Shown here piece after piece: positions 22,004 to 63,401 of a stretch of 64,000 nt of DNA. The position numbers and the translations under genes were made by a program. The DNA is taken from assembly GCA_017403065.1 (NCBI GenBank), contig JAFQOT010000006.1, positions 33,865 through 97,864 on the forward strand, given 5' to 3'. The stretch comes from Clostridia bacterium (lineage in GTDB: Bacteria > Bacillota > Clostridia > Oscillospirales > Acutalibacteraceae). Each line of letters opens with the position of its first letter. The stretch's first letter is position 1. Under the pieces are notes generated by a model, which was not told the DNA's origin, searched no databases, and saw only the letters and a program-made list of their open reading frames with translations.

Positions 22004-22006
22004 TTG

Positions 22007-44441: not shown

Positions 44442-44816
44442 AATCTCTTTCCTCTTTTATCTGATAAAATTATAAGCTTTATTTAAATTCATAAAAATTT
44501 TATGAAATTGAAATAGGGTTATGTTTTGAAAAACCGTTTCCAAAACAGGTAGATGTATTCATATCAAATCACGTCCTTAAACAAATACAAAAAACGCAAA
44601 TTTGTGACAAAAAAAGACAATAAAAGCTTAAAATGGGGATACTATAAGCAATTATATCTTATGATACAGTATACATTATATCACATTTTAGGTGATTTTC
44701 TATAACAATTATGCTTTTTTTTCTTAAAAACAGAAAAAATATGTTCACTTTTTAGAAATAATATAGTATAATATTAACAAATAAATTGATTTTTTATGTA
44801 ACGGTGATTAAAACTT

Positions 44817-45620: not shown

Positions 45621-45622
45621 CG

Positions 45623-45670
45623 AATCAGCTCGGCACCAAAGTGCCGAGCTGATTTCTTTCTTCGTTTTTT
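45623..45670 (+). terminator. rho-independent terminator after the AraC gene
   Basis: aatcagctcggcac / gtgccgagctgatt 14-bp stem followed by a T-rich tract. Confidence 0.8.
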
Positions 45671-45713
45671 GTTAAAAAAGCGAAATATCGTTATTATAAG
45701 CCGTATTTTATTC

Positions 45714-46505
45714 CTAATCCACGTTTACACCCTTATTAAACAATTTAATGTTTATTAAAAATCCAACAATATTTATTACTATATAACTTATAATGCTGTA
45801 AACAACAGCAAATTTAATAACCTCTAAATTCATCGCCTTAGTTGTAACAAATATATTCATAAAATCGCTATTAAAAATTGCAGGTATAAACATTAAAATC
45901 ACAATCGTAATTTGGCTTAGCATATAGATTATAAAGCCAAATAAAACCGACATTCCCAATTTGCCGTTGTTAAAGCGGTGGCCTAAAATAATACCTGTAA
46001 AGCCACACTGTAAAATATTTATAAACTCAAGATATAACACAAAAACAACTAAAACCAAACCCGTCAGTAAGGATATATTAAAGGTATTCAAAATTGGAGA
46101 TATCATAGCTTTTAGGGCATCCGCATTTTCCTTGCTGTAATAGATTACAAAAAGACCCAAAATTAAAACAATTAAGCTAACAAAAGCGGTTATAACGGCT
46201 GTCAGCATTTTTGAGCTATAGATACAATGCTTTTTCACAGGTAAGGTATGGGTAAGATAGGATTCATCTCCATAAACGCTTTGACGAAACTTAACCCAAA
46301 GGCGCAATATGTTATTCGCAAAAGCGCTGAAAAGCATAGAAAAGGCAGCGCCTCTGCATATTTCACCTACTATTTTCATGAACAGGGAATTATCGATATT
46401 TAAAAACAGTCTTGTTAAAACTGCAAAAAACAGACCGAGAATATAAAAAACACTTAAAAATTTCAAAAACTGTTTTAAATCATATTTTAAAAGCCTACCT
46501 AACAT
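45714..46505 (-). CDS. ABC-2-type transporter membrane protein (function unknown)
   Basis: 6-7 TM hydrophobic protein overlapping the upstream ATPase gene. Confidence 0.7.
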   Translation of the reverse strand: MLGRLLKYDLKQFLKFLSVFYILGLFFAVLTRLFLNIDNSLFMKIVGEICRGAAFSMLFSAFANNILRLWVKFRQSVYGDESYLTHTLPVKKHCIYSSKMLTAVITAFVSLIVLILGLFVIYYSKENADALKAMISPILNTFNISLLTGLVLVVFVLYLEFINILQCGFTGIILGHRFNNGKLGMSVLFGFIIYMLSQITIVILMFIPAIFNSDFMNIFVTTKAMNLEVIKFAVVYSIISYIVINIVGFLINIKLFNKGVNVD

Positions 46506-47197
46506 CTGAACATCCTCCTGAAAATTTCATCCACAGAACCGCCTTGTTCTGTACGTAGCTTGTCACACTCAGAATGAAGAATAATTTTACCGTCGTTTAT
46601 AAAAATAACATCATCTAATATACGTTCTATATCGTTTATCAGGTGGGTAGAAATAATAACGCTTGCCCCCTCGTTAAAGTTAGAAAGTATAGTGTCGAGA
46701 ATATATTCTCTCGTAGCAGGGTCGACACCCCCAAGTGGCTCATCAAGTATATAAAGGTCGGCTTTTCGACTCATAACTAAAACCAACTGCACCTTTTCTT
46801 GCATACCCTTGCTCATCTTGGCAAGCTTTTGATTAACATCAAGACCCAATTCTTCTAATAGCTTATATGCCTTTTGGCTATCAAAATTATCATAAAATTC
46901 AGCAAAATATTTTATAACCTGTGCAACCTTCATCGATTTGTCAAGGTAGGTGCGTTCAGGTAAATAAGCAATAATTTTTTTAGATTCCACGCTTGGCGAT
47001 TTGCCGTTAATCAATACTTCTCCTGATGTGGGGGTGAGCAAATCGTTTATAAGCTTTATTAGAGTTGATTTGCCCGTTCCGTTTTTACCAAGTAAGCCAA
47101 CAATCTTGCCACGAGGTATGGTCAGGTTTATATTTTCCAAAACCTTTTTAGCGCCAAAACTTTTGTTTAAATTTTTAAGTTCTAATATGGTATTCAT
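46499..47197 (-). CDS. ABC transporter ATP-binding protein
   Basis: Walker A GKNGTGKST, signature MSKGMQ, Walker B LYILDEP. Confidence 0.92.
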   Translation of the reverse strand: MNTILELKNLNKSFGAKKVLENINLTIPRGKIVGLLGKNGTGKSTLIKLINDLLTPTSGEVLINGKSPSVESKKIIAYLPERTYLDKSMKVAQVIKYFAEFYDNFDSQKAYKLLEELGLDVNQKLAKMSKGMQEKVQLVLVMSRKADLYILDEPLGGVDPATREYILDTILSNFNEGASVIISTHLINDIERILDDVIFINDGKIILHSECDKLRTEQGGSVDEIFRRMFRC

Positions 47198-47559
47198 TTG
47201 TTACCTCCCAGTTGTTCGATTTGTTTGGATATTTCTCCAAGAGAATACCCTATGTCATACATTCTTTTTAAGTAAGTAAGGGTTAATTCCTCAGCATATT
47301 TTTGCTTATAAAAATTTATCAAAGAAGTATCGTGGGTTATAAATTTACCGTTGGTGCGCTCGGTAAAAACAAGTCCCGATTCCTCTAATTCAACAAGCGC
47401 TTTTTGCATAGTGTTAGGATTAACCTTAGTTTCATTGGCAAAATCCCTAACCGACGGTAAACGTTCTCCAGGCTTAAATTTGCCCGCTACAATGTCGGTT
47501 TTGATTTGTTCCACAATTTGAATGTATATGGGTATGTTATTATTAAAGTCAAATTTCAT
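47194..47559 (-). CDS. GntR-family (YtrA-subfamily) transcriptional regulator
   Basis: Short 121-aa GntR wHTH (LPSVRDFANETKVNPNTMQKAL); first gene of the GntR-ATPase-permease operon. Confidence 0.88.
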   Translation of the reverse strand: MKFDFNNNIPIYIQIVEQIKTDIVAGKFKPGERLPSVRDFANETKVNPNTMQKALVELEESGLVFTERTNGKFITHDTSLINFYKQKYAEELTLTYLKRMYDIGYSLGEISKQIEQLGGNK

Positions 47560-47573
47560 ACAAACCTCCTTAC

Positions 47574-47622
47574 TGTATTACTAAACTAATACAATAATAC
47601 ACCGCAATAACGCCTTTGTCAA
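47574..47622 (-). promoter_or_regulatory. promoter plus palindromic operator of the ytrA-like operon
   Basis: Minus strand TTGACA (47617-47622), 17 nt, TATTAT (47594-47599), then inverted repeat TGTATTA-N6-TAATACA (47574-47593). Confidence 0.55.
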
Positions 47623-47633
47623 GAAAAATTAAA

Positions 47634-47663
47634 ATAGAGCGACATTTTGTCGCTCTATTTTTG
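47634..47663. terminator. bidirectional terminator
   Basis: atagagcgac / gtcgctctat stem flanked by an A-run and a T-run. Confidence 0.7.
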
Positions 47664-47730
47664 TTGAAAGGGTTATGTAAATTTTATGTTTCTCTAATTT
47701 TTTCTATGTGTTCGAACCCGGACATATTTA

Positions 47731-47898
47731 GTGATATTGTGCCTTTGGCACAGTGATATTTTTATTCCATAAAAGTGATATTTCTGCTAACGCAGAAGTG
47801 ATATTATATTCGCCATTAAAACTCGCGAAGCGAATATCACTTGGACGAAGTCCAAATATAACTGCGAAGCAATATAACTCGCCAAAGGCGAATATAAC
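47731..47898. repeat. array of about 8 mini-hairpins, each flanked by a conserved heptamer (GTGATAT / its complement ATATCAC / variant ATATAAC)
   Basis: GTGATATT at 47731, 47753, 47775, 47798. ATATCAC at 47834; ATATAAC at 47856, 47872, 47892. Short variable stems with 3-4-nt loops lie between them. Confidence 0.85.
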
Positions 47899-47900
47899 TA

Positions 47901-47932
47901 AAAAAGACGATTGCTTTCGCAATCGTCTTTTT
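47901..47932. terminator. bidirectional terminator-like hairpin
   Basis: aaaaagacgattgc-tttc-gcaatcgtcttttt perfect stem with flanking A/T runs. Confidence 0.7.
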
Positions 47933-48074
47933 CTTTGAAAGGGATTTTGTCTCGGTGCTGCCGCGCCTATCGCCTCGCTCGCGCTCGTTGCCACGTCGGC
48001 GAAAACAACCATTTAGGTTCTTTTCTTCCGCTTCGCTCCCTCCTTGTTCGAATCCCTTTCTCCATATAAAAATT

Positions 48075-48108
48075 AAAAAGGAACCAATCCTTTGGACTGA
48101 TTCCTTTT
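48075..48108 (-). terminator. rho-independent terminator immediately after tRNA-Arg
   Basis: Minus strand GGAATCAGTCC-AAA-GGATTGGTTCC followed by TTTTTAATTTTT. Confidence 0.7.
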
Positions 48109-48112
48109 TAAT

Positions 48113-48189
48113 TGGCACGCTGAAAGGGATTCGAACCCCCGACCCTCTGCTTAGAAGGCAGATGCTCTATCCAACTGAGCTATCAGCGC
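48113..48189 (-). tRNA. tRNA-Arg (anticodon UCU), CCA encoded
   Basis: Hand-folded cloverleaf: acceptor GCGCTGA/TCAGCGT, D-arm GCTC-AGTTGGATA-GAGC, anticodon loop CT-TCT-AA, T-arm GGGGG-TTCGAAT-CCCTT, discriminator G, CCA. Confidence 0.9.
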
Positions 48190-48249
48190 ATACGCTTTAT
48201 CTTAAAGCAAAAGTGATTATATCACACAACCAAAAAATAATCAAGTGTT

Positions 48250-49167
48250 TTATTTTATTTTTTCTATATCATAAGGGGTTGTCTGATAAACGAAATAGTT
48301 AAGCCAGTTAGAGTAGAGTAAATTTGCGTGGGAACGCCACGTAACAATGGGTTTTTTGTCCGCATTGTCTTGGGGAAAATAATTTTTAGGCATTTCAATA
48401 GGCTTATTTGCCTTTAAGTCTCTAAAATATTCGTTAGCTAAGGTTTCACCGTCATACTCGGAATGGCCCGTGATGAAAATCTGCTTTCCGTTTTTGGTAG
48501 AAACGGCATATACACCCGCTTCTTTGGAGCTTGCTAAAATTTTAAGTCCTTTAACCTTTTTTATATCCTCTTCTAAAACGGTAGTGTGCCTTGAATGAGG
48601 CACCATAAATTCATCATCAAAGCCGCGGAACAGTATGGAATTTTTATAGTCCACTCTGTGAGGAAATACCCCGAACATTTTCTTAGAAAGAGGCTTTTTA
48701 TCAATACCAAAGTGGTAATAAAGCCCAGCCTGCGCCCCCCAGCAAATATGAAAGGTGGAATGTACGTGGGTTTTGGTCCACTCCATAATTTCGCAAAGCT
48801 CTTCCCAATACTCCACCTCTTCAAAGGGCATATTTTCTACTGGTGCGCCTGTGATAATCATACCGTCAAAGGTGCGGTCCTTAACCTCGTCAAAGGTTTT
48901 GTAAAAGGTAAACAAATGCTCGGCAGAGGTGTTTTTTGATATGTGACTTTTTGTGTGAATAAATTCTAAATCCACCTGCAAGGGCGAATTGCCCAAAAGT
49001 CTTGAAATCTGGGTTTCGGTTTCAATTTTTTTGGGCATAAGATTAAGCATTAAAATTTTTAGAGGACGAATATCCTGTGTTATGGCTCTGGTTTCGGTCA
49101 TAACAAAGATATTTTCGTCATTTAATGTTTTTACCGCAGGTAAATCGTTTGGAATTTTAATAGGCAT
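48250..49167 (-). CDS. metA: homoserine O-acyltransferase (MetA family)
   Basis: N-terminus [11 protein letters not shown]...LNLMP and ~305-aa length are typical of MetA; active-site Cys context [10 protein letters not shown]. Confidence 0.9.
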
Positions 49168-49191
49168 TAGTCTATACCATTCCTTTTTAAA

Positions 49192-50475
49192 TTAAATATT
49201 GTCTAAAGCTTGCTTTATATCTGCAATTAAATCCTCGGCATCCTCAATACCGCAGGAAAAACGTATCAAATCAGGAGAAATGCCTGCCGCTGTAAGCTCA
49301 TCGTCATTCATCTGACGGTGGGTAGCGCTTGCAGGGTGCAAGCAGCAAGAACGGGCATCTGCAACGTGGGTTTCAATAGCTGTAATTTTAAGACCCTTCA
49401 TAAAGGCTTCTGCGCTTTTTCTGCCGCCCTTAACGCCGAAGCTTACTACACCGCAGCTTCCGTTAGGCAAATATTTCTGGGCAAGGGCATACTCACTGTC
49501 ACCCTCAAGACCTGGGTAGGTAACCCACTCTATTCTATCGTCTTGCTGTAATGCCTTTGCCACAGCCAAACCGTTTTCGCAGTGCTTTTTCATTCTTACG
49601 TGCAGACTTTCAAGTCCGAGATTGATATAAAAAGCGTTCTGTGGTGACTGAATAGAGCCAAAATCTCGCATAAGCTGAGCAGTAGCCTTAGTAATATAAG
49701 CACCCTCAAGCCCGAATCTTTCTGTGTAGGTAACACCGTGATAGCTTTCATCAGGAGTGCAAAGGCCAGGGAACTTATCTGGATACTTTGTCCAGTCGAA
49801 TTTTCCCGAATCTACAATACATCCGCCTACAGAAACACCGTGACCGTCAATATATTTAGTGGTAGAATGGGTAACAATATCCGCTCCCCATTCAAACGGT
49901 CTGCAGTTTACAGGGGTTGCAAAGGTATTATCTATAATAAGAGGAACCCCGTGGTCGTGGGCAGCCTTTGCAAATCTTTCAATATCCAACACCTTTAAGG
50001 CGGGGTTTGCAATAGTTTCGCCGAAAACAGCCTTTGTGTTTTCCTTAAAAGCGGCATTTAATTCCTCGTCGGAGCAGTCGGGTGAAACAAAGGTAAAATC
50101 GATGCCCATACGCTTCATTGTAACTGCAAAGAGGTTATATGTTCCGCCGTAAATTGCCGAAGAAGCAACAATATGGTCTCCACAAGAGGCAATGTTAAAA
50201 ACAGAATAAAAAGATGCTGCCTGACCCGATGAGGTGAGCATTGCGGCAGTACCGCCCTCAAGCTCGCAGATTTTTGCTGCAACTGTGTCGTTTGTAGGGT
50301 TTTGAAGACGTGTATAAAAATATCCGCTTGCTTCTAAATCAAAAAGCTTGCCCATATCCTCGCTTGTTGCATATTTAAAGGTGGTTGACTGAATAATTGG
50401 TACCTGACGAGGCTCGCCGTTACCTGCTGTGTAACCGCCCTGTACACATTTTGTGCCGATTTTTAAGTCTTTCAT
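49192..50475 (-). CDS. metY: O-acetylhomoserine sulfhydrylase (PLP-dependent, Cys/Met metabolism family)
   Basis: PLP-lysine context HSTTKYIDGHG; ~427 aa. Confidence 0.88.
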   Translation of the reverse strand: MKDLKIGTKCVQGGYTAGNGEPRQVPIIQSTTFKYATSEDMGKLFDLEASGYFYTRLQNPTNDTVAAKICELEGGTAAMLTSSGQAASFYSVFNIASCGDHIVASSAIYGGTYNLFAVTMKRMGIDFTFVSPDCSDEELNAAFKENTKAVFGETIANPALKVLDIERFAKAAHDHGVPLIIDNTFATPVNCRPFEWGADIVTHSTTKYIDGHGVSVGGCIVDSGKFDWTKYPDKFPGLCTPDESYHGVTYTERFGLEGAYITKATAQLMRDFGSIQSPQNAFYINLGLESLHVRMKKHCENGLAVAKALQQDDRIEWVTYPGLEGDSEYALAQKYLPNGSCGVVSFGVKGGRKSAEAFMKGLKITAIETHVADARSCCLHPASATHRQMNDDELTAAGISPDLIRFSCGIEDAEDLIADIKQALDNI

Positions 50476-50481
50476 ATTATA

Positions 50482-51288
50482 TCACTCCAAATTAAATACT
50501 CTTTTTGCGTTCATATTTAGTATACACTTAATTTCCCATTCGTCAAGCCCAAGCGACAAAAAATATTCCATTTCGCTCTTACTGTCCCACATAGGATAAT
50601 CGGTGCCAAAAAGAACCTTATCTGCGCCGTATTTACGTATAATTTCTTTAGCCGTTTCAGGCTTGAGGGAATAAAAGCTTGATGAGCAGTCAACATAAAA
50701 ATTTTTTATGCCCTTGTATTCATCTACAGCCGTTTCCCAGAGCGACCATCCGCCCAAATGGGCGCCGATAACGGTTAAATTTGTGTAAATATCCAAAATT
50801 GGCAATAATCTGTTAGGGTTTGAATAGTCGTATCGGATATCCCCCGTGTGCATTAAAACAGGAAGCCCTTTTTCTTCGCAAAGCTCATAAATTTTAAGGC
50901 ATCGCCAGTCATCAATCTTAAAGGCTTGTATATCGGGGTGAAGCTTTACACCTTTAAGCCCTAAGGACAAAAGATGCTCTATATCCCCCTTTATATCCTG
51001 ACTGTCAGGATGCAAAGTGCCCAAACCCACTAATTTTTCAGGGTTTGCGGCAACCTCGTTGGCAATAAATTCATTTATACTTTGCACCTGTTTTGGAGTA
51101 GTAGCAACCGACTGAACAATAAATTTGTCAATCCCTGCTTCTTCGCCCCTTTTTAAAAGATCTTCTACCGTACCGCTTCCAACTGAATGGGTAGAATAAA
51201 AATTATCGGTACCCATTACTGCCTTTTGTGCTATTTTTTCAGGATAAATATGGCAGTGGGCATCTATAGCGTAAATTCCGTTTATCAT
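50482..51288 (-). CDS. metal-dependent TIM-barrel hydrolase (Amidohydrolase_2-like)
   Basis: IDAHCHIYP N-terminal HxH, later KLHP, MHTG, GAHLG, FGTDYP ligand contexts. Confidence 0.8.
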   Translation of the reverse strand: MINGIYAIDAHCHIYPEKIAQKAVMGTDNFYSTHSVGSGTVEDLLKRGEEAGIDKFIVQSVATTPKQVQSINEFIANEVAANPEKLVGLGTLHPDSQDIKGDIEHLLSLGLKGVKLHPDIQAFKIDDWRCLKIYELCEEKGLPVLMHTGDIRYDYSNPNRLLPILDIYTNLTVIGAHLGGWSLWETAVDEYKGIKNFYVDCSSSFYSLKPETAKEIIRKYGADKVLFGTDYPMWDSKSEMEYFLSLGLDEWEIKCILNMNAKRVFNLE

Positions 51289-53780
51289 ACTAAGCCTAAT
51301 CTCTTTGCTGCGTCCTCGCGCATTTTGTATTTCAATATTTTTCCTGCCGCATTCATAGGGAATTTGTCCACAAATTCTATATAACGGGGCACCTTGTGTC
51401 TTGCCATATGGTCGGCAATGTAGGTGCGCATTTCCTCCTGTGTCATATTCTCGCCCTCTTTAAGTATAATGCAAGCCATTATTTCCTCGCCATATTGCTT
51501 ATCGGGTACACCTATAACCTGAACATCCCTTACCTTGTCACAGGTGTATATAAATTCCTCTATCTCTTTTGGATAAATATTTTCGCCGCCGCGAATTATC
51601 ATATCCTTAAGACGACCTGTAATTTTGTAGTTTCCGTCATCATCCTTGCAAGCAAGGTCGCCTGTGTGAAGCCATCCGTCCTGGTCGATAGCCTCAGCAG
51701 TAGCGTAGGGCATTTTATAGTAGCCCTTCATTATATTATACCCCCGCGCAACAAACTCGCCGTTTTCTCCGTTTTTACACTCCTCGTTTGTTTCGGGATT
51801 AACCACCTTGCACTCTACATTTGCAAAGGCGCTGCCTACAGTTTCGGTACGCACCTCAAGAGAGTCGTAATAACTGCTCATAGTACATCCTGGAGATGCC
51901 TCGGTCTGACCGTAAACCGACACAATTTCTCTCATATTCATATCAACTGTAGCTCGCTTCATAAGGTCGGCAGGACAGTTAGCCCCTGCCATAATTCCCA
52001 CGCGCATATATGAAAAGTCGGTTTTTGCAAAATCAGGATGATTCATCATAGCTATAAACATTGTAGGCACACCGTTAAAGGCGGTAATGCGCTCAGAATT
52101 TATACAAGCTAAGGATGATTTTGCCGAAAAATAGGGCATAGGGCACATTGTAGCGCCGTGTGTCATAGAAGACGTCATAGAAAGCACCATTCCAAAGCAA
52201 TGAAACATAGGAACCTGTATCATCATTCGGTCTGCGGTGGACAATTCCATATGGTCGCCTATATATTTACCGTTGTTAACTACGTTATAGTGGGTTAGCA
52301 TAACACCCTTTGGAAAGCCTGTAGTACCTGAGGTGTACTGCATATTGCATACATCGTCCTTATCAACCAAGGCTGCCATACGGTGAACCTCAGAAACAGG
52401 CACCTGTGATGCCCTTTCTAAAGCCTTGCTCCAGGTTAAACACCCTTTTTGGCTGTAGCCTACGGTAATAACATTTCTCAGAAAGGGCAAACGCTTGCTG
52501 TGTAAAGGCTTGCCCTCTTTTGTAGCTTCAAGCTCTGGGCATAATTGGGCTACAATTTCACCGTAATTGCAGTCCCGTGCTCCCTCGGTCATAATAAGGG
52601 TATGGGTATCAGACTGCTTTAAAAGATACTCAATTTCGTGAATTTTGTAGGCGGTATTAACCGTTACCAAAACTGCGCCTATTTTTACAGTTGCCCAAAA
52701 GGCGATATACCACTGAGGAACGTTTGTTGCCCATACCGCAACATGAGTTCCCGCCTTTACCCCCAAGGAAATCAGCGCGCGGGCAAAATTGTCAACATCG
52801 TCCCTGAATTCGCTATAGGTTCTTGTGTAATCAAGAGTAGTATATTTAAAGGCGTATTGGTCGGGAAATTCTTCAACCATACGGTCAAGCACCTGAGAAA
52901 AGGTGCAATCAATAAGTCGGTCCTTCTCCCATACGTACTTGCCTGTATGAGCGCGGTTATAATAAAGGGAATTATCACTTTTAGAGGTGTCGCTGTATTG
53001 CTTCATATAATTTATGAATTGAGCAAAAATAATCTCCATATCCTTTAATTCCTGACACCACTCAGGGTCCCATTCAAGAGATATAAAACCGTCATAATTC
53101 ACCGAGCTAAGACCCAGCATCATATCCCCGATAGGCATTTCGCCCTCGCCAATAAGGCAAAATTCAGCGCCGTTTTCAGTCTTTACAGCATCCTTAATAT
53201 GCACGTGCTTAATATAAGCCCCTAAATTTTTAATAGTGGCTTCAGGGTCCTCGTCATTTAAGAAATATGGGGGATACATATCCCACAAGGCAGCTACATT
53301 GTCGTGAGCAAAGCTATCCAACAGATTTCTCAAGTTTGAGGTGTTGGAATAAATTCCTGTAGTTTCTATTAAAAGGGTTACGTTTTTCTCCTCTGCCTGA
53401 GGTAAAACCTTAGAAATAACCTCTTTCATCATTTCGTTTTTCTCTTGGGTATATTCGCCCCCTGTAGCCCTGATTCTGATATTAGGAATATGCAGCTTTG
53501 CCGCAATTTCTATGCAGGAAGAAATTTCATCAATATCGCAGGTGTTTTTATCTATAGGGTTGCAAACCGTATCAAGACAGGGAAGCTCAAGCCTTTTTTC
53601 ATAAAGCTTTCTTACCGTTGCGTTTGCTTTATAATCGTAAAAAGCCCCGTCTTTATCTGTAAACAAGGGATTATGTATGTCGTGTATTTCAATTCCCTTA
53701 AATTTTAAATCCTCGGCAATATCACAAAAATCCCAAAAGGTGCTGTTTACCCAACCCTTTGTGGAAAAAGATAATTTCAT
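51285..53780 (-). CDS. fusion protein: xylose-isomerase-like TIM barrel (aa ~1-270) plus AMP-forming adenylating enzyme / acyl-CoA-synthetase-like (aa ~290-831)
   Basis: N-terminus KGIEIH...LLIETTG...VHIKD...ISLEWDPEW. C-terminal AMP-binding motifs YTSGTTGFPKGVMLTH, GYYK, TGDLA, RLKDMIIRGGENIYP. Confidence 0.85.
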   Translation of the reverse strand: MKLSFSTKGWVNSTFWDFCDIAEDLKFKGIEIHDIHNPLFTDKDGAFYDYKANATVRKLYEKRLELPCLDTVCNPIDKNTCDIDEISSCIEIAAKLHIPNIRIRATGGEYTQEKNEMMKEVISKVLPQAEEKNVTLLIETTGIYSNTSNLRNLLDSFAHDNVAALWDMYPPYFLNDEDPEATIKNLGAYIKHVHIKDAVKTENGAEFCLIGEGEMPIGDMMLGLSSVNYDGFISLEWDPEWCQELKDMEIIFAQFINYMKQYSDTSKSDNSLYYNRAHTGKYVWEKDRLIDCTFSQVLDRMVEEFPDQYAFKYTTLDYTRTYSEFRDDVDNFARALISLGVKAGTHVAVWATNVPQWYIAFWATVKIGAVLVTVNTAYKIHEIEYLLKQSDTHTLIMTEGARDCNYGEIVAQLCPELEATKEGKPLHSKRLPFLRNVITVGYSQKGCLTWSKALERASQVPVSEVHRMAALVDKDDVCNMQYTSGTTGFPKGVMLTHYNVVNNGKYIGDHMELSTADRMMIQVPMFHCFGMVLSMTSSMTHGATMCPMPYFSAKSSLACINSERITAFNGVPTMFIAMMNHPDFAKTDFSYMRVGIMAGANCPADLMKRATVDMNMREIVSVYGQTEASPGCTMSSYYDSLEVRTETVGSAFANVECKVVNPETNEECKNGENGEFVARGYNIMKGYYKMPYATAEAIDQDGWLHTGDLACKDDDGNYKITGRLKDMIIRGGENIYPKEIEEFIYTCDKVRDVQVIGVPDKQYGEEIMACIILKEGENMTQEEMRTYIADHMARHKVPRYIEFVDKFPMNAAGKILKYKMREDAAKRLGLV

Positions 53781-55159
53781 TAGTTTGCCTCCTCGTAGAC
53801 AATTTTGTTAATAGCGCCTATATAAGCCTTTATGCTTGCGCCTATAATATCGGTGGAAATACCGTTACCTGAATACACCTTTCCGCCGCTTCTCAGCTTA
53901 ACAAGAGCCGAGCCCAAAGCCTGCTTACCCTCGGTTACCGACTGAATCTGGAAATCATCCAGCTCGTAATGGTGTCCGATAATCTGCTCAATAGCTAAGA
54001 AAGCTGCGTCAATAGGTCCGTCGCCTATACTTACCCCCTGTATATTCAAACCGTCCTTTTCAAGTGTAATCTGAGCGGTGGCTGAAATAATATTACCATT
54101 ATTTATCAAATAATTTACAAGCTTGTATGTTGGCGGTACCTGTAAAGCCACGCTAGCTACAATAGCGTCTAATTCCTTAGAACCAACGCTTTTCTTTTCG
54201 GCAACGCGTAAAAATTCCTCGTAAACCTTTTGGCTGTCCTCTTCAGAAAGGTCGTAGCCCAGCTTCATTACTGCGGCAGCTACTGTATCCTTATCGTCAT
54301 TGACACCTAAGGCTATACCGCTGTCAAAAGAAGCAACACTACAGGCTGATTTTTCATTTTTTGCGTTAGAAATAATCCAGCTTATCTGGTTTATAATGCG
54401 GTTAAGCTCGGTGTATTTGATGTCAGAATTAAAACCGTTTATATCACCGCAGTTTTTAATAATTCCTGTTATTGTTTCAAGGGGTATCCCCTCGCCCTTA
54501 ACGTCGGTCTTTATAACCGAAACGCCCTTTTCTAAAGCCATAACTGCATTAGCTGCGGCAAGTCCGTTTTTATTGCTGCACATAACACCGTATTCTACAT
54601 TGTCGCTATCCTTTACATTGGCTGCGGCAAATTCACCAAAAGCCTGAGGCATCATCTCTGCGGCAGAATCGCAAATAGTTACAGCCGTAGCGCCGGCTTT
54701 TACTGCGGTAGAAACAATACTTTCTAAAACATCCTTTTCGGCTCTTGCGGCATCAACCGCGCAAAATTCAACATCATTTATTTTTGATTTTGCCGCCTTT
54801 ATAAGCTTTTCAACAAGCAGCTCCATCTTGTCTGCCTTTTTGTGACAGGTATACTCCATTCCCACGGTAGATACGGGAAGCTCTATTCTGAGCCTTGGCT
54901 TTTTAGTGGTCTGTAAGGCTGCGGCAGCCGCCTCAACGCTCTGCTCGGTCATTCCTGCATTTACCGAAATTACAGTATTTTTAATAAAAGATGCCATAGT
55001 TTTAATCAACAAGGTATCGGTTTTAACATTTGCCATAGCAGGTAATTCTATAACGTCTACCTGAAGCTTATCAAGCTGACGGGCAATTTCAATTTTCTCT
55101 TTAAAGCTAAAAGCGTTTTCTTCTTTGCATAAAGTTCTGTCTGCAATTTTGATTTTCAT
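53780..55159 (-). CDS. LeuA-like protein with degenerate catalytic barrel and intact C-terminal LeuA-dimer/regulatory domain
   Basis: HMGL-like fold, but DRTLCKEEN replaces DTTLRDGEQ and MCSNKNG replaces HxHNDxG. C-terminus ...SGNGISTDIIGASIKAYIGAINK matches the LeuA allosteric domain. Confidence 0.75.
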   Translation of the reverse strand: MKIKIADRTLCKEENAFSFKEKIEIARQLDKLQVDVIELPAMANVKTDTLLIKTMASFIKNTVISVNAGMTEQSVEAAAAALQTTKKPRLRIELPVSTVGMEYTCHKKADKMELLVEKLIKAAKSKINDVEFCAVDAARAEKDVLESIVSTAVKAGATAVTICDSAAEMMPQAFGEFAAANVKDSDNVEYGVMCSNKNGLAAANAVMALEKGVSVIKTDVKGEGIPLETITGIIKNCGDINGFNSDIKYTELNRIINQISWIISNAKNEKSACSVASFDSGIALGVNDDKDTVAAAVMKLGYDLSEEDSQKVYEEFLRVAEKKSVGSKELDAIVASVALQVPPTYKLVNYLINNGNIISATAQITLEKDGLNIQGVSIGDGPIDAAFLAIEQIIGHHYELDDFQIQSVTEGKQALGSALVKLRSGGKVYSGNGISTDIIGASIKAYIGAINKIVYEEAN

Positions 55160-55200
55160 AATTTTCGCTCCTTGATAAAGTCTTATGCAATATAGATAAT

Positions 55201-55462
55201 AAAAAATCCCTGAGACTGCTATATTGCAATCTCAGGGACGAATAATATTCGCGGTACCACCCTGATTACCATAAAAGGTCACTCTACGAGCTCTAACAAG
55301 CTCTTTGTCGTGATAACGGGACAAACCGTAACAGCTTACTTTGTTTCAGCCGTTCTGCTCGGGAATGAGACTTGACACCTTGCACCGCCGCCGACTTGCA
55401 CCAACCGTCAGCTCTCTGAATTTTAGTAACAAAGGCAATAATTCCTTCAACGCATTTATACC
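55201..55462 (-). promoter_or_regulatory. T-box riboswitch leader, probable Leu (CUC) specifier
   Basis: Minus strand: K-turn-like TGCGTTGA...CGAGCA, AGAGAG bulge, GGTTGGTGCAA distal loop, T-box AATCAGGGTGGTACCGCG (55250-55267), terminator 55201-55238 with a T6 run. Confidence 0.9.
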
Positions 55463-55467
55463 TCATC

Positions 55468-55496
55468 ATTATAATACAAGCAAAAAACTTTGTCAA
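55468..55496 (-). promoter_or_regulatory. consensus sigma-A promoter driving the T-box operon
   Basis: Minus strand TTGACA (55491-55496), 17-nt spacer, TATAAT (55468-55473). Confidence 0.7.
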
Positions 55497-55513
55497 GTAT
55501 TTTCTAAAATATT

Positions 55514-55546
55514 AAAGAGGTAAGCTTTTTAAAGCCTACCTCTTTT
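55514..55546 (-). terminator. rho-independent terminator after the oxidoreductase operon
   Basis: aagaggtaggc...gcttacctctt hairpin followed by TTTAATATTTT on the minus strand. Confidence 0.7.
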
Positions 55547-55548
55547 TC

Positions 55549-56541
55549 TTACTTATTGCAACATTTTGTAATAAGCTTATGAAGCCGCAGCTCGTAATCC
55601 GGAGTATACGGATTGGTTTTTTCGCCAGCCACCATTTGAGCAAAGCTTGCAAGCATCGAATCGAAACGATAGTTAGGCTCACACTCGCTGATAATTGATT
55701 GATCGCGCCATTGCTCGCTGAAATATTCTCTTACCCTTGTAGTCTGTGAATCAGGCAGTCCTATCTCAAGAGGGTTTACCTCAACTGTTCCTTTAGAACC
55801 TGTGATTACAAGCTGTCTTCTCTCAAATCCACCTCGTTCTACACCTGAGGTTTTAGCAAAGGATACACCGTTTTTATACCTTAAAGCTACCATGCCCTGA
55901 TCTATATTATGTATCCCGTCGAAGCCTGTTGACGCGCTAAGATTGATAATTTCCTCAGGTTCACCTTGTATTTGATAAATCAAATCTATTAAATGACAAC
56001 CTAGAAAATAAAGCATACCACTTGGGAAGGTGGAAAGCCACTGACGAAGCTCAGGCTTTTGCCAACAGCTCATCTGTGCCTCAACGCTTTGTATTTCACC
56101 GTACTTACCCTCTTTTACGTCCTTAAGCACCTGCATTACACTAGGGTTATATCTATACATATATCCCGTATGAAAAACAAGGTTTTTGGCTTTTACGGTT
56201 TCTATCATTTCCTCAAAGAGAGTGTGGTCTAAGCCGCCCGGCTTTTCCATATGAATGTGCTTTCCTGCCTTAGCGGCAAGCAAAGCATATTTTGTAAGAT
56301 AAATTTCTTCTGTTTCTATAATAACAGCTTCTATTTCTTTATTATTTAAAATTTCCTCAACCGTCATTTCGCGACATTCAGCAAAGGCTTCTACCAAATC
56401 GGGAAATTTTTCCTTTTCGTTTTCAGGAAAAGCACAGCCCACCATTTCAAAAATGTGACTTTGACGCTTAATGCTAGCAAAAATAGGATTACCGTGACTG
56501 TTCTTACTTGTCCCTATTTGCGCTATTTTTATTTTACCCAT
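55549..56541 (-). CDS. Gfo/Idh/MocA-family oxidoreductase
   Basis: N-terminal Rossmann IKIAQIGTS, EKP motif (HMEKPGG). The ATG at 56541 follows GGGAGA and overlaps the upstream stop (TAATG); the ORF track extends to 56556. Confidence 0.85.
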   Translation of the reverse strand: MGKIKIAQIGTSKNSHGNPIFASIKRQSHIFEMVGCAFPENEKEKFPDLVEAFAECREMTVEEILNNKEIEAVIIETEEIYLTKYALLAAKAGKHIHMEKPGGLDHTLFEEMIETVKAKNLVFHTGYMYRYNPSVMQVLKDVKEGKYGEIQSVEAQMSCWQKPELRQWLSTFPSGMLYFLGCHLIDLIYQIQGEPEEIINLSASTGFDGIHNIDQGMVALRYKNGVSFAKTSGVERGGFERRQLVITGSKGTVEVNPLEIGLPDSQTTRVREYFSEQWRDQSIISECEPNYRFDSMLASFAQMVAGEKTNPYTPDYELRLHKLITKCCNK

Positions 56542-57560
56542 TAAAATTTCTCCCAATTAAACTGAACAACAGGAAATGCAGGCTCTTCGACAAGACGTTT
56601 ATACACCTGAGGTGCCTCATCGGGTGTATGAATCTCTTCAACAAGCGAAGCAAACTCGATTCTACCGCAGCTTACCATTTTTTGAATTGCGTACATATCG
56701 TCCTTTAAGGTCCACCATCCGTTAGAGGATTCCTCGTTAGGACGGGCGCAGGTATGAGCGCCAACAAGGGTAATGCCCGGTCCGTGAACCTTTTTGTAAT
56801 AATCTATAGTAAAATCAGAATTACGGGTACAACCTAAAAGAGCCACACGGCCGTATCTTGCCATACAGTCTAATACAGAATCCAAAGCCTTGCCGTTACC
56901 TGTAACCTCAATAGCAACATTAACGCCGCCATTTGTCACACCGCGTACCTGCTCTTCAAAATCCTCGATAAAAGGGTCAAAGGCATAATCTGCGCCTAAT
57001 TTTAAAGCTAACTCCCGCTTTTCAGGAATAGGATCTACAGCAATAATTGGGGAGGCTGCTGCCGCGCGTAAAAGTTTGATTGCCATTATTCCCAATATTC
57101 CCATACCCATTACGATAGCAGACTCGCCCATTTCAAAGCGGCATTTTCTGATTGCTGCAAGGGGAAATGTCGCTATATGCCACAACGCGGCTTCGCTGAA
57201 GCTTATAGACTCATCCTCAATTTTGAAAATATTTTTTTCTTCCATTAACACATAATTTCTGTGTTGAGTCCAAGCCATAGCCACTCTGTCGCCTGGCTTT
57301 ACTGATGTAACCCCTTCGCCTACCTCTACAACTACACCGGATGTGCTATATCCAGATATTCTTGGGTATGTAGCCGTTGTATCTGTATGTCGCTTAGGGC
57401 TTATACTAACACCGCCCATAAGATTAGCGCGCTCAGTTCCGCTGCTTATCGTCGATGACATAACCCTAACCAAAACTTTTCCCGCAGTTGTTTCGGGACA
57501 TTTTCCTTCTACAACCTCTACCACCTTAGGAGCATTGAACATTATTGATTTTCTATTCAT
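56541..57560 (-). CDS. zinc-type medium-chain alcohol/polyol dehydrogenase
   Basis: MDR fold with GxGxxG-like GMGILG and GroES-like N-terminal domain. Confidence 0.8.
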   Translation of the reverse strand: MNRKSIMFNAPKVVEVVEGKCPETTAGKVLVRVMSSTISSGTERANLMGGVSISPKRHTDTTATYPRISGYSTSGVVVEVGEGVTSVKPGDRVAMAWTQHRNYVLMEEKNIFKIEDESISFSEAALWHIATFPLAAIRKCRFEMGESAIVMGMGILGIMAIKLLRAAAASPIIAVDPIPEKRELALKLGADYAFDPFIEDFEEQVRGVTNGGVNVAIEVTGNGKALDSVLDCMARYGRVALLGCTRNSDFTIDYYKKVHGPGITLVGAHTCARPNEESSNGWWTLKDDMYAIQKMVSCGRIEFASLVEEIHTPDEAPQVYKRLVEEPAFPVVQFNWEKF

Positions 57561-57664
57561 TAAAACTCACCTCATTTTTTATTATACATCTTGTTTTTCC
57601 TTTTTAAATATGCTATTCTATAAAAAAAGAGGTAAATTTATCCTTGTTTTCGGAGGTTTTTTAG

Positions 57665-58417
57665 ATGAATGATGTAATTTTCTCAAATAGCTTTGTTTTT
57701 AACCGATGCGAAAGAAGCAAATACTCTTATACCGATTGCACAAAAGGTAGCTGTAAGCACTATTTTGCATATATGCACAAGGGTACTGCAAAAATTGTTT
57801 CTGATAAAACCACTATATATATCAAAGAGGGGGATGTTTTTTATATTCCAAATAAATGTAGCTATAAATCCTACTGGTATGGTGAAGACGCTATCATATT
57901 TGATTCCTTAGGCTTTAAATATATGCCTAATTTCGATGAAAACGGCTTTGTTCTGCAGTCAATCTCCTCAACCAAAGAGGAAATAGATTTAATAGAAAAG
58001 CTTGTTTTGCGTAAACCTATTGACTATGAAGCTGTGGCTGATTTTTACCGTTTAGTATCCCTTTTAGCGCCTAAAATGAAAAAGGACGAAAAAAGCTACG
58101 CTGAACATGTTATAAAAACGATAAAAAAAGAGATTTACTTTGATTGCCACGCAAAAATATCCCATATTGCAAAAAAATGTAATATAAGTGAGTCGGTAAT
58201 CTACGCAACCTTCAAAAAGTACGCCAACATAACCCCCAACGAATTCAGACAGAAGGTTTTAATAGAAAAAGCTAACGAAATTCTTATAACCACCGATAAG
58301 TCTATCGAGGAAATCAGTCAAGCACTTCAATTCAGCTCAAGCTCTTACTTTAGGAAAATATTTAAAAAATACACAGGAACAACACCTAAAGCAGTGCGTA
58401 AAAAAACTATACTTTAA
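57665..58417 (+). CDS. AraC-family transcriptional regulator
   Basis: C-terminal AraC HTH (ISESVIYATFKKYANITPNEFRQKVLIEKANEIL ... SSYFRKIFKKYTG). Confidence 0.88.
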   Translation: MNDVIFSNSFVFNRCERSKYSYTDCTKGSCKHYFAYMHKGTAKIVSDKTTIYIKEGDVFYIPNKCSYKSYWYGEDAIIFDSLGFKYMPNFDENGFVLQSISSTKEEIDLIEKLVLRKPIDYEAVADFYRLVSLLAPKMKKDEKSYAEHVIKTIKKEIYFDCHAKISHIAKKCNISESVIYATFKKYANITPNEFRQKVLIEKANEILITTDKSIEEISQALQFSSSSYFRKIFKKYTGTTPKAVRKKTIL

Positions 58418-59679
58418 TATTTTTCCTTAACATCAACATTCTCGCATTGAATAACTGTTATTTTCTCTTTTGGACAAGAAATACCAATATCACTTATGTT
58501 AACAGTTGAAGCATTTTTTAAATATATACCCTCGCCGTATGAACGCAGTCGTTCGAATGCCATAATCGGCTCTATTCCCTTTTGGGTGCCTGTAATCTCC
58601 ATATCTATATTTTTTATTGTAATATCCCGTACAGGCATCTCGGGCAGACCGTTGATGTAAATTCCTACTCCTCGAACGTTACGGCAAACCGCTTTATCAA
58701 GAGTTATACCCTGTATGCGAGGGGTGGCTTCATCAGGCGTCAGCTTTTCCGGATTTGGTAAATCAGGATCATTTAAATCAGCGCCGCAACGGTAAAATTC
58801 GTTTATAGTAAACGCCGCCATTATATTGTCCATAGTAATATCACTTATATTGATATTTTCTACAAAGCCGCCTCTTTTTCGACGGGTTTTTATTCGGATA
58901 CCCCTGTCGGTATTTTTAAAGATACAGTTGCTTACTGTTACATTTTTTACTCCGCCTGACATCTCGCTTCCAATTACAAGTCCCCCGTGGCCGTGAGCCA
59001 TAACACAGCTTGTTACAGTTATATTTTCACAAGGATACCTTTTTTGAAGCAGGTCGGTTTCGGTTCCCGATTTTAATGTTACGCAGTCGTCCCCTACATC
59101 TATATAACAGTTTTTAATGGTTACATTTTTACAGCTTTCAGGGTTTATGCCGTCTGTATTAGGGGAATCGTACGGGTTAATTACCTTTACCGAATCGATA
59201 ACCACATTTTCACAACACATTGGGTGAACTGTCCAACAAGGAGAGTTTACAACGGTTATGTCCTTTATTTCCACATTTTTGCACAGAATAGGATTTATCG
59301 TTCTGGGTCTTAGCAAATCAGAGGGCATACTCTTCCACCAGTTATAGCCTCTGCCGTCGATTTTACCGCTGCCCTCTATCGTTATGTTTTCAGCGTTATA
59401 GGCGGTGACAATTCCGCTGAAGCCCCCTCTTGTGTAGCCGTCAAGCTGGATTTTTTGGTAATCCTTAATGTCCGAGCTTGCTAAAATTTCACAACCGTCT
59501 TCTAAATAAAGGCTCATATTTGAGTAAAGGGTTATTGTTCCTGTAACATATTTTCCTTTTGGAAAATAGACTGTCCCTCCCTTTTCCTTAAGGCTTTCAA
59601 TAAGCTTTTTTATTAAAGCCGTGTTGTTTGTTTCTCCATCACCAATTATACCATACTTTGTAACATCATACCTCGTCAT
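58414..59679 (-). CDS. glycoside hydrolase family 28 (polygalacturonase-like), no signal peptide
   Basis: GH28 signature set NTDGI, GDDC, GHGG, RIK on a parallel beta-helix repeat. The ATG at 59679 is preferred over the GTG at 59685. Confidence 0.85.
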   Translation of the reverse strand: MTRYDVTKYGIIGDGETNNTALIKKLIESLKEKGGTVYFPKGKYVTGTITLYSNMSLYLEDGCEILASSDIKDYQKIQLDGYTRGGFSGIVTAYNAENITIEGSGKIDGRGYNWWKSMPSDLLRPRTINPILCKNVEIKDITVVNSPCWTVHPMCCENVVIDSVKVINPYDSPNTDGINPESCKNVTIKNCYIDVGDDCVTLKSGTETDLLQKRYPCENITVTSCVMAHGHGGLVIGSEMSGGVKNVTVSNCIFKNTDRGIRIKTRRKRGGFVENINISDITMDNIMAAFTINEFYRCGADLNDPDLPNPEKLTPDEATPRIQGITLDKAVCRNVRGVGIYINGLPEMPVRDITIKNIDMEITGTQKGIEPIMAFERLRSYGEGIYLKNASTVNISDIGISCPKEKITVIQCENVDVKEKY

Positions 59680-59729
59680 TATCACCCTTTTTTGCTAATT
59701 TCAAAACGCAAAATAAAATTTACTCGCTT

Positions 59730-60896
59730 TTAATAATTAAGACCCATAGAACAATGGAAATCTTCAGTAAACTCGGTAACGCCCCAAGAAATCCAACGCT
59801 CATAGTCTGAAAAGTCGTGACGGAATACCTCCCACACCGATGCAAAATAACCTGCCTGAGTAATTTTTCTTGCAATTTCCTCGGTACATTCCTTTGCCCG
59901 TACCTCTATACCCACGCGGCAACCCTTCGCATCAATACCACTGTTACTCAGTTCATCGATTAGAGAGTCATCCCATTCTCTGATATCATAGGTGTATCCT
60001 TCAATATCGGTTCCAAACACCTCATAAGCCGTTTTTAAAATTGGCATATCAAAGCTCTTAATGTGGAAATTCTTGAGTAGTCCTCGGCACTCAAGCATAT
60101 CTCTTACCTGTTTCCACTGCTGTGTCGTAAGTTCTGGGTGGGTACTAAACATTGGACGCATACCCGTTTTTGCACACAAATCAAAGAAGTCTGAAAGAAG
60201 AGGAAGCTTTGTACCCTTATATATCTTATTTTTATAAGAACCATACTCCCACTCCTGAAGCTCGTCATAGGTTTTATCCCAAACATAAATAGGCTCTGTA
60301 GGAGGATTGTTGTCTTTATCTCTTGCAGTTTTATTGATAGTATCATCGTGAATACATACAAAAACCCCGTCCGCAGTTACCTTAGGTACTACAATACAAG
60401 CGGGAAATCCACAAGCTGCCGCCAACTCAAATGCGGGCATAGTATTGTTTGGCGCAAGCCCCCAAAAGCCCAGATGGGCATTGTGTCGCATACCGCCGTG
60501 CCAGTCTCTTGTACCGCGATCCGCTGCTGAGCCAAAGTCAAGCACGCTCAAAACTGTGCCTTCCGGAATTTGTATATGTACCCCCGCTGTTACCTCTTGG
60601 CAGTATAAGGGCGGAACGCGCCATTCCTGTCTTGTGTACTCTTCTTTTTTTCCAACCCTATAGTTGTGTGATTTGTAAAAAGGATTTTTCTGTCCCTTCG
60701 GTGTCAGAGTTATTTGAATTTTAGGAGCCTCTTCGCCTGTGTAGCTGGATAGCATGCAAACTAAAAAACAAGGGTCTGTACCTCTGCGCTCGCAGGTTAC
60801 AGAAAAGCTATCCTTAATTTGCAGCACACCGTCAACAACCTGCCCAAACTGTGATAACGAATTGTAAGAAAACATACTATTCTTTCCTTGTTTCAT
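59730..60896 (-). CDS. GDPD-like (PLC-like phosphodiesterase fold) protein with an unassigned N-terminal domain; non-canonical active site
   Basis: AHLGFWGLAPNNTMPAFELAAACGF...VCIHDDT aligns with GDPD HRG...PENT...ExD...HD, with several ligand substitutions. An alternative start at 60875 has the better SD. Confidence 0.55.
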   Translation of the reverse strand: MKQGKNSMFSYNSLSQFGQVVDGVLQIKDSFSVTCERRGTDPCFLVCMLSSYTGEEAPKIQITLTPKGQKNPFYKSHNYRVGKKEEYTRQEWRVPPLYCQEVTAGVHIQIPEGTVLSVLDFGSAADRGTRDWHGGMRHNAHLGFWGLAPNNTMPAFELAAACGFPACIVVPKVTADGVFVCIHDDTINKTARDKDNNPPTEPIYVWDKTYDELQEWEYGSYKNKIYKGTKLPLLSDFFDLCAKTGMRPMFSTHPELTTQQWKQVRDMLECRGLLKNFHIKSFDMPILKTAYEVFGTDIEGYTYDIREWDDSLIDELSNSGIDAKGCRVGIEVRAKECTEEIARKITQAGYFASVWEVFRHDFSDYERWISWGVTEFTEDFHCSMGLNY

Positions 60897-61049
60897 TTAT
60901 ATAATACTTTCTGTAATAATTTATTTCCTAAAAAATACGGGCTTCAATTATGAATTCGGCTTCGCCGAATGTTATGGTATTTTCGCCAAATTTACCGCAA
61001 TACAACTCATAACACAGCGAAGCCGTTTATTTTTTATAAAACTTAAATC

Positions 61050-62030: not shown

Positions 62031-62044
62031 ATTTTTTCCTCCCA

Positions 62045-63241: not shown

Positions 63242-63372
63242 AAATCATTATCCTTTCAAACCGCTGTTTTTAAGTATTATAATACCCAAAACAGCTTCAA
63301 AATAAGCATACTGTTTGCGAAATAAATACCTTATGGCTTTCTATTTATTTCTACAACCTTCGTAACAGAGTT

Positions 63373-63401
63373 ATTATATACCTATATAATAATTTTTTCA
63401 A
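63373..63401 (-). promoter_or_regulatory. sigma-A-like promoter for the cofE-like/guaA-like operon
   Basis: Minus strand TTGAAA (63396-63401), 17-nt spacer, TATAAT (63373-63378). Confidence 0.5.

Follow-up and report, generated by a model that had tools for sequence, protein, structure and literature searches.

HisZ, the histidyl-tRNA-synthetase-like regulatory subunit of short-form ATP phosphoribosyltransferase, is a dead paralogue that works as a feedback-sensing subunit. That ruminococci depend on branched-chain volatile fatty acids and make leucine from isovalerate has been known since the 1960s; the genes and control of this route are, to our knowledge, still ill-defined. Allison, Bryant and co-workers (in J Bacteriol, 1962) reportedly showed by labelling that ruminococci incorporate isovalerate into leucine. 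Both themes bear on the locus described here, from a 64,000-nucleotide (nt) stretch of a Clostridia bacterium (Oscillospirales, Acutalibacteraceae; GCA_017403065.1, contig JAFQOT010000006.1, positions 33,865 to 97,864), hereafter the window. It encodes a homologue of 2-isopropylmalate synthase (IPMS; LeuA), termed pseudo-LeuA (53780–55159, minus strand; 459-amino-acid (aa) open reading frame (ORF)), and, directly downstream, XI::ACS, a xylose-isomerase-like (XI) barrel fused to an AMP-forming acyl-CoA synthetase (ACS).

Canonical IPMS passes its signal through a domain-swapped dimer (PMC9860122), and the regulatory domain of CimA, from the same family (PF08502), senses an amino acid (Ile) on its own when isolated (PMC13381585). 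IPMS activity in Mycobacterium tuberculosis (Mtb) is destroyed by R80A/K and E218A, among other substitutions (review, PMC10464499).

Domains, catalytic motifs and conservation of pseudo-LeuA

Pseudo-LeuA is a LeuA homologue over its entire length. The HMGL-like family PF00682 matched aa 13–235 (E 7.6e-31, Pfam), within a degenerate DRE-TIM (HMGL-like) barrel of aa 1–240 (54440–55159, minus), and PF08502 matched aa 327–453 (E 2.9e-30), covering positions 4–130 of the 131 in the profile; together with domain conservation this places the LeuA_dimer (allostery and dimerisation) domain at aa 327–457 (53789–54181, minus). An AlphaFold2 prediction from 52 family sequences had a mean predicted local distance difference test (pLDDT) score of 86.3, falling below 50 at aa 269–280, within a shortened subdomain-I region. 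Its best Foldseek matches in the PDB were methylthioalkylmalate (MAM) synthase, Mtb LeuA and three bacterial IPMS catalytic domains, and the barrel superposed on 3ewb, 3eeg and 3rmj with a root-mean-square deviation of 1.8–2.0 Å and a template-modelling (TM) score of up to 0.91 (target TM 0.8–0.9); DmpG/DmpF-type structures were also among the matches. Profile domains, model and structural matches thus agree with two statements of a first-pass annotation of this DNA, that the fold can be aligned end to end with 2-isopropylmalate synthases and that the C-terminal LeuA_dimer domain is well preserved. Identity to four LeuA-like comparators of ~500 aa (P0259, P0264, P0269 and P0270; the contigs carrying P0259, P0264 and P0270 are unrelated to the pseudo-LeuA loci) is 36–42% in the regulatory domain and 27–33% in the barrel.

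The catalytic motifs were compared with those of solved LeuAs (3rmj, 3ewb, 3eeg and 6e1j) using HMMER and with those of the four comparators using MAFFT. The replacement of DTTLRDGEQ by DRTLCKEEN (aa 7–15) and of HxHNDxG by MCSNKNG (aa 193–199), both read by eye in the first-pass annotation, are borne out with correct numbering (D7–N15; M193–G199): MAFFT sets ‘ADRTLCKEEN’ against ‘FDTTLRDGEQ’, and HMMER sets ‘vMCSNKNGLA’ against ‘aHCHNDLGLA’. The xRDGxQ motif is therefore absent, with Cys11 in place of the 2-oxo-acid Arg and Lys12 in place of the metal Asp, and both metal His of HxH are lost, to Met193 and Ser195. The catalytic Glu of EDA (Mtb E218) is replaced by Val135 (‘fcaVDAAR’ opposite ‘fspEDAtR’, HMMER), at a site that is variable across the family, so that the pseudo-LeuA equivalents of Mtb R80 and E218 are Cys11 and Val135.

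Two further motifs required correction. GERAGN had been read as replaced by GEGIPL; the motif is lost, but not by substitution, since a deletion of 4–5 residues removes the ERAGN loop (‘G-EG-----IPLETI’ opposite GLGERAGNAALEEI with HMMER and MAFFT; the HMMER view, ‘GEG.....IPLE’ opposite GLGERAGNASVEE, gives a five-residue deletion). The pairing of HESGIH with FDSGIA was a misalignment, as ‘FDSGIALGV’ pairs with the later ‘NSGIVLGK’ segment (HMMER, 6e1j domain 2), and the HxSGIHQDG loop (Mtb His379, subdomain I) falls inside a deletion of 25–33 residues (50 aa vs 75–83 aa in the comparators). HCS_D2 was not detected in pseudo-LeuA by Pfam, but is present in comparators P0259 and P0264. With two of the motif losses being deletions, the loss is more severe than had been stated.

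Among NCBIfam equivalog models, pseudo-LeuA scores 263 against a cut-off of 532 for NF002086 and 236.7 against 598.7 for TIGR00973, and it is also below cut-off for the remaining LeuA, CimA and NifV models. A shift in the by-eye alignment was ruled out, as HMMER alignment to the four solved LeuAs, NCBIfam and Pfam profiles, MAFFT and Foldseek agree, and proper profile alignment (Pfam, HMMER, NCBIfam, MAFFT) does not restore RDGEQ or HxH. Assignment as a CimA, homocitrate synthase, HMG-CoA lyase or DmpG-type aldolase was also rejected, with scores well below those for LeuA and the same metal ligands needed. Of the defining LeuA features tested, pseudo-LeuA has the barrel fold and the LeuA_dimer domain but fails five (xRDGxQ, HxH, the EDA Glu, the subdomain-I loop and the equivalog score), and the metal-dependent Claisen condensation of 2-oxoisovalerate with acetyl-CoA is predicted to be absent. 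Pseudo-LeuA would thus descend from a bacterial 2-isopropylmalate synthase but be catalytically dead and, on this evidence, should not be filed as such an enzyme. Family proteins carry the database names ‘2-isopropylmalate synthase’, ‘hypothetical protein’ and ‘alpha-isopropylmalate synthase regulatory domain-containing protein’; the first is wrong, and could lead pipelines to credit genomes with a LeuA activity that they probably lack.

Searched with a sensitive method, a set of 1.84 billion cluster representatives yielded 305 matches at E ≤1e-30. The family alignment comprised 110 full-length top matches, 107 of them family members of ~455–497 aa, and these ~107 representatives are clusters at 50% identity. 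RDGEQ, HxH and the ERAGN loop are missing from all 107 (MAFFT), while the Arg-Asp pair and HxH are kept in comparators P0259, P0269 and P0270 but not in P0264. The last is a 511-aa LeuA with HCS_D2 (L088:8001–9536), followed by an aconitase-family (leuC-like) gene, and shows TLCDGEQ and RAY where TLRDGEQ and HCH are expected (MAFFT); it may have lost its catalytic residues independently within a canonical leu operon, or the differences may be artefacts of alignment or assembly. The species-genome collection holds at least 559 confirmed family loci, and all of the matches listed come from gut bacteria (of ruminants, other animals and humans) classed as Acutalibacteraceae, Oscillospiraceae, Ruminococcus or unclassified Clostridia. 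A genome scan with P0237, the most distant family member, gave no match, and its locus was taken from a metagenomic contig by exact look-up.

Within pseudo-LeuA, conservation is highest in the regulatory domain. Mean column identity within the family is 0.69 there and 0.48 in the barrel, and positions conserved at ≥90% number 31/131 and 15/240, respectively. Conserved regulatory motifs (GDGPIDA, TEGxxAxG, GxGxSTDI, AYxxAxNK) are retained, and the ≥90% positions are largely those common to canonical LeuA. The gene is under purifying selection. Loss of all catalytic residues might suggest a relic, that is, a decaying leuA pseudogene whose frame is still open, but this is effectively refuted by conservation: ORFs are intact in at least 559 genomes and ~107 clusters, with the same architecture down to 33% identity, the C-terminal domain and gene order are conserved, and a dedicated riboswitch lies ahead.

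The first-pass annotation had offered two explanations, a pseudoenzyme kept as a ligand sensor or a barrel recruited to new chemistry, and the former is favoured because conservation peaks in the regulatory domain, which keeps the canonical LeuA motifs. A neofunctionalised barrel, carrying out new metal-independent chemistry on a leucine-pathway intermediate (acyl-CoA or 2-oxo acid) with the XI-like barrel and an amidohydrolase encoded downstream, is distinctly unlikely. Family-specific near-invariant barrel residues (F19, P95, E102, Y103, K108), other retained residues (D7, T9, S97, D136, R139, D164) and the two additional putative cassette enzymes without an assigned role could be taken to indicate such chemistry. 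However, conservation in the barrel is far lower than in the regulatory domain, subdomain I, the active-site cap in LeuA, is deleted and predicted to be disordered, most of the retained residues belong to the structural core common to canonical LeuA, and no new constellation of catalytic-type residues is evident.

The Leu T-box leader and the XI::ACS partner

The pseudo-LeuA gene is the first behind a T-box leader (55231–55459, minus; Rfam RF00230, 109.1 bits vs a gathering threshold of 93, E 1.1e-23), which follows a sigma-70 type promoter (TTGACA-17-TATAAT, 12/12 matches; 55468–55496, minus) and, further upstream, the terminator of the preceding gene (55514–55545). The specifier codon is CUC (Leu; 55369–55367, minus), followed by A55366, in agreement with the Leu specifier read in the first-pass annotation, and CUC plus a purine (A or G) is invariant in 71/71 aligned orthologous leaders. 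The T-box sequence GGUGGUACC is present (the UGGN criterion of Leu-class T-boxes), with the bulge UGGU at 55259–55256 (minus), and the intrinsic terminator of the riboswitch (55206–55239, minus) consists of a 14-bp stem and a T run. The discriminator base of tRNA-Leu is A73, which the UGGU bulge fits. From the T-box, specifier and bulge, the cassette is predicted to be induced by uncharged tRNA-Leu. A Met-specific T-box, suggested by the downstream genes metY and metA, was ruled out, as the specifier is CUC in every aligned orthologue, and no S-box or Met T-box was found in 44000–64000 of the window. The Rfam T-box was found at every sampled close locus except four: in L024, L035 and L044 the pseudo-LeuA gene comes after IlvE, and L055 has only ~370 nt of upstream sequence.

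XI::ACS (51285–53780, minus; 831 aa) has AP_endonuc_2, AMP-binding and AMP-binding_C domains (Pfam) and is PRK12583-like (663 bits, NCBIfam), with the XI-like TIM barrel at aa 1–~283 and the AMP-forming synthetase at aa ~284–831. Its ATG overlaps the pseudo-LeuA stop codon (TAATG), and its ribosome-binding site, GAGGAGG, sits in the last codons of pseudo-LeuA. XI::ACS lies directly after pseudo-LeuA in 80/80 related loci, with a gap of −4 to +6 nt in the 71/71 pairs measured, and the pair is kept in T-box-less relatives at 33–42% identity (L081, L082, L084, L085 and L086). From this arrangement, pseudo-LeuA is most likely made together with XI::ACS by translational coupling and works as its non-catalytic regulatory subunit.

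The same evidence bears on two alternatives. A scaffold or adaptor, in which the dead barrel and dimerising domain do no sensing and only assemble or stabilise XI::ACS, or tether it to the VorB-type oxidoreductase described below for acyl-CoA channelling, is unlikely, although it deserves weight. Obligate synteny and translational coupling would be expected for a scaffold too, LeuA_dimer is a dimerisation as well as an allosteric domain (as its Pfam name implies; PMC9860122), and HMGL-like barrels, including the DmpG/DmpF type seen with Foldseek, form channelling complexes with their partners. However, the conserved regulatory residues are those common to feedback-regulated LeuAs and extend beyond the hydrophobic interface, retention of a whole beta-beta-beta-alpha x2 domain at this level of column identity would be unneeded, and the Leu-specific T-box ties the cassette to leucine status. 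That the dead paralogue instead heterodimerises with a true LeuA encoded elsewhere, modulating its activity or feedback, is highly improbable. LeuA forms domain-swapped homodimers and can readily be engineered into heterodimers (PMC9860122), and the dimerisation domain is preserved here, but no canonical leuA was found within ±8 kb in any of the 80 loci, and the conserved coupled partner is XI::ACS, even in distant relatives.

The synthetase half of the fusion (AMP-binding E 2e-92, plus AMP-binding_C) is strongly conserved, with 69% of positions conserved at ≥90% and TSGTTGFPKG, YGQTE, TGD and GRLKD kept; the XI-like half is far less so. Among 73 orthologues of the XI-like domain (52930–53780 in the window), E139, H192, H194 and D197 are conserved and many other charged residues are invariant, while D167 (N/D/H/Q) and E236 (V/E/I), presumed metal-ligand positions, vary. 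The XI-like domain may be a second degenerate barrel serving docking. The third gene of the cassette (50482–51288, minus) encodes a 268-aa protein of the Amidohydro_2 metal-dependent hydrolase/decarboxylase family (Pfam) with HxH, His and Asp intact, the nearest solved structure being 3irs (BB4693, uncharacterised). It follows the fusion in 58 of the 65 loci with enough downstream sequence, and is absent in L086.

A proposed leucine-sensing role

In 35 of the 80 loci the cassette adjoins genes for a 2-oxoacid:ferredoxin oxidoreductase (VOR; alpha, beta and gamma subunits) and/or a class-IV aminotransferase, as do 26/49 of the loci with at least 5 kb of upstream sequence. The alpha subunit scores above the VorB cut-off (544.6 vs 399) and the aminotransferase above the IlvE cut-off (481.8 vs 307; both NCBIfam). 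Gene order in the distant relative L086 is metY-metA-P-loop-ferredoxin-VOR(alpha, beta, gamma)-IlvE-pseudoLeuA-XI::ACS, with every gene on the same strand, and in L082 it is VOR-gamma-IlvE-pseudoLeuA-XI::ACS. An AMP-forming synthetase, VOR and IlvE make up the three steps that take a branched short-chain acid to the matching amino acid by reductive carboxylation.

In 22 loci, one or two helix-turn-helix (HTH)-cupin-acyl-CoA synthetases, often with a P-loop protein, lie ahead of the VOR/IlvE genes; their best match is the Staphylococcus aureus MbcS model (433.6 bits, under its cut-off of 850). One such gene (L033:716–3154) codes for an 812-aa protein with an XRE-type HTH and a cupin fused to the MbcS-like synthetase, and these proteins often occur as two tandem copies (also in L017, L027, L031, L035, L038, L056, L057 and L060), their genes lying upstream of those for the P-loop protein, the VorB-type oxidoreductase and IlvE. 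The fusion places a transcription-factor-like head on an enzyme and is possibly a sensor-enzyme for isobutyrate or 2-methylbutyrate. MbcS accepts both of these acids, and isovalerate poorly (PMC10026030); a separate Leu-controlled synthetase for isovalerate would therefore fit the gene content.

In the proposed scheme, uncharged tRNA-Leu(GAG) would cause T-box antitermination and expression of the cassette, and the synthetase would then turn a branched short-chain acid, most likely isovalerate, into its CoA thioester. Reductive carboxylation by the VorB-type oxidoreductase would give 2-ketoisocaproate, which IlvE would transaminate to leucine, and rising leucine would bind the regulatory domain of a pseudo-LeuA dimer and shut down the synthetase. 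T-box plus feedback would amount to the same two-level control as that of canonical LeuA. Residue loss, family-wide conservation, synteny, the Leu T-box and the VOR, IlvE and MbcS-like neighbours are observed; that pseudo-LeuA and XI::ACS form a complex, that leucine binds, that isovalerate is the substrate and which way the flux runs are inferred. The full proposal, that pseudo-LeuA is a HisZ-like, leucine-sensing, non-catalytic subunit of an isovalerate-activating synthetase at the entry to reductive carboxylation to leucine, is put forward as quite possible but tentative. Put forward with slightly greater caution is the statement that a dead isopropylmalate synthase has been reused to make an isovalerate-CoA ligase allosterically responsive to leucine, as its sensing subunit, forming the committed, feedback- and T-box-controlled entry of a reductive-carboxylation (‘Allison’) pathway from isovalerate to leucine in gut and rumen Oscillospirales.

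Several points weigh against this proposal. VOR and IlvE are not near the cassette in the window, and neither is encoded within its 64 kb, while metY and metA come after the cassette there. One family member (P0249, 35% identity; L083:1287–2693) has no XI::ACS partner. The XI-like barrel and the Amidohydro_2 protein are without a role in the scheme, and their presence suggests extra chemistry; the near-invariant barrel residues listed above could mark a new site rather than an interface. The substrate specificity of the synthetase is guessed from context. A single-sequence phmmer search of the regulatory domain against the PDB returned no LeuA or CimA chain, and the ligand could be an amino acid other than Leu, since the CimA homologue binds Ile. 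Finally, VOR and IlvE are reversible, and isovaleryl-CoA could thus feed lipid primers instead of leucine. As a separate observation on L083, its family member lies directly after a tRNA gene, beside RhuM- and HTH-type (mobile-element-like) genes.

The lipid-primer use corresponds to an alternative in which the same sensor would operate, but isovalerate would be scavenged to isovaleryl-CoA for iso-odd branched-chain fatty acids when leucine is scarce, and no leucine would be made. In the 1962 work of Allison et al., ruminococci are said to have put isovalerate into branched lipids as well, leucine is the normal source of isovaleryl-CoA via IlvE and VOR, which can run oxidatively, and MbcS-like synthetases are found in the same clusters. 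S. aureus MbcS supplies lipid primers from other branched acids in this way (PMC10026030). This alternative has only a slim chance of being the whole explanation: tRNA-Leu T-box control is typical of genes that raise leucine supply, the combination of AMP-forming ACS, VOR and transaminase in one operon (L086) reads as acid to amino acid, and lipid and leucine uses are not mutually exclusive.

If the leucine-sensing proposal is true, pseudo-LeuA would be the first described LeuA-derived pseudoenzyme and a new case of a dead paralogue serving as an end-product sensor, following the logic of HisZ. The regulatory logic of the de novo leucine pathway would have been moved onto a salvage pathway by turning the first enzyme of the former into a pseudoenzyme. 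In the full-text literature no description was found of an IPMS pseudoenzyme or of a pseudo-LeuA/XI::ACS cassette, and nothing relevant was found on T-boxes together with isovalerate and acyl-CoA, or on LeuA_dimer (IPMS regulatory domain). The locus would supply candidate genes (the acid-activating enzyme, its regulator, VOR and IlvE) and regulatory logic for the isovalerate to leucine route, in a family that is abundant across gut genomes. About 40% of human gut genomes are predicted leucine auxotrophs from canonical pathways (PMC10689445), a prediction that could fail where the isovalerate route is in use.

Neighbouring genes and comparison with described systems

Downstream of the cassette in the window, metY (O-acetylhomoserine sulfhydrylase; 49192–50475, minus) begins 6 nt past the amidohydrolase gene, and may be co-transcribed with the cassette or driven by a weak internal promoter (50546–50519, minus). 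It is followed by metA (homoserine O-acyltransferase; 48250–49167, minus), a tRNA-Arg(UCU) gene (48113–48189) and the next strong terminator (48071–48113). metY and metA are found downstream only in the subclade of the window, in 24/80 and 21/80 loci, respectively. The two genes thus adjoin the cassette in two arrangements, downstream in this clade and, in the distant L086 (934–3173), upstream of the P-loop-ferredoxin-VOR genes.

Elsewhere, the window carries a uronate/pectin utilisation set (19112–24529 and 58414–59685) encoding UxaC, altronate dehydratase, a mannitol-dehydrogenase-family oxidoreductase, an esterase and GH28, with AraC-type regulators and ATP-binding-cassette (ABC) sugar transporters close to it; the host is a saccharolytic member of the Clostridia. 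A 1623-aa ORF with a faint Listeria-Bacteroides repeat match is followed by a 586-aa ORF without a Pfam match (26448–31319), and both probably encode large surface proteins. At 61050–63241, the gene for a 398-aa protein of the CofE-like F420-0:gamma-glutamyl ligase family, with a long insertion relative to the 218-position profile, abuts one for a 331-aa protein that corresponds to GMP synthase over its ATP-pyrophosphatase and C-terminal part only.

Pseudo-LeuA shares with LeuA (TIGR00973/PRK00915; 1sr9, 3fig, 3rmj) the HMGL-like/DRE-TIM barrel, subdomain II, LeuA_dimer with the same regulatory motifs, and a position first behind a Leu T-box, as in leuA operons of Firmicutes. It differs in lacking the substrate Arg, metal Asp, both His and catalytic Glu, as well as the ERAGN and HxSGIHQDG (subdomain-I) loops. 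It is also ~50 aa shorter, scores below all equivalog cut-offs, and has an acyl-CoA synthetase fusion behind it in place of leuCDB. MAM synthase (6e1j), the top Foldseek match, is likewise an IPMS derivative that arose by loss of one functional module, but it kept catalysis and lost the regulatory domain, the reverse of pseudo-LeuA.

S. aureus MbcS (PMC10026030) is a functional analogue of XI::ACS in its ATP-dependent activation of exogenous branched C4–C5 acids. However, it is Acs-like and monomeric, has no regulatory subunit, uses isovalerate poorly and feeds lipids, whereas XI::ACS is PRK12583/ACSF2-like and fused to a TIM barrel. The small subunit of acetohydroxyacid synthase (IlvH/IlvN; ACT domain) resembles pseudo-LeuA, in its proposed role, as a separate non-catalytic subunit that gives branched-chain amino-acid feedback to a catalytic partner, but belongs to another domain family and is not a pseudoenzyme. 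In the LeuA-type regulatory domain of CimA (PMC13381585), PF08502 is an autonomous amino-acid-binding module; the stand-alone CimA domain is engineered and Ile-specific, while that of pseudo-LeuA is natural and carried on a dead barrel. The logic proposed for pseudo-LeuA is that of HisZ, a dead paralogue of an amino-acid-recognising enzyme that serves as end-product sensor of the committed enzyme in the pathway to that amino acid, and in pseudo-LeuA, too, the catalytic residues are lost and the ligand-recognition module is retained. The two differ in fold and pathway, which are unrelated, and in that complex formation and regulation are demonstrated for HisZ and proposed for pseudo-LeuA.

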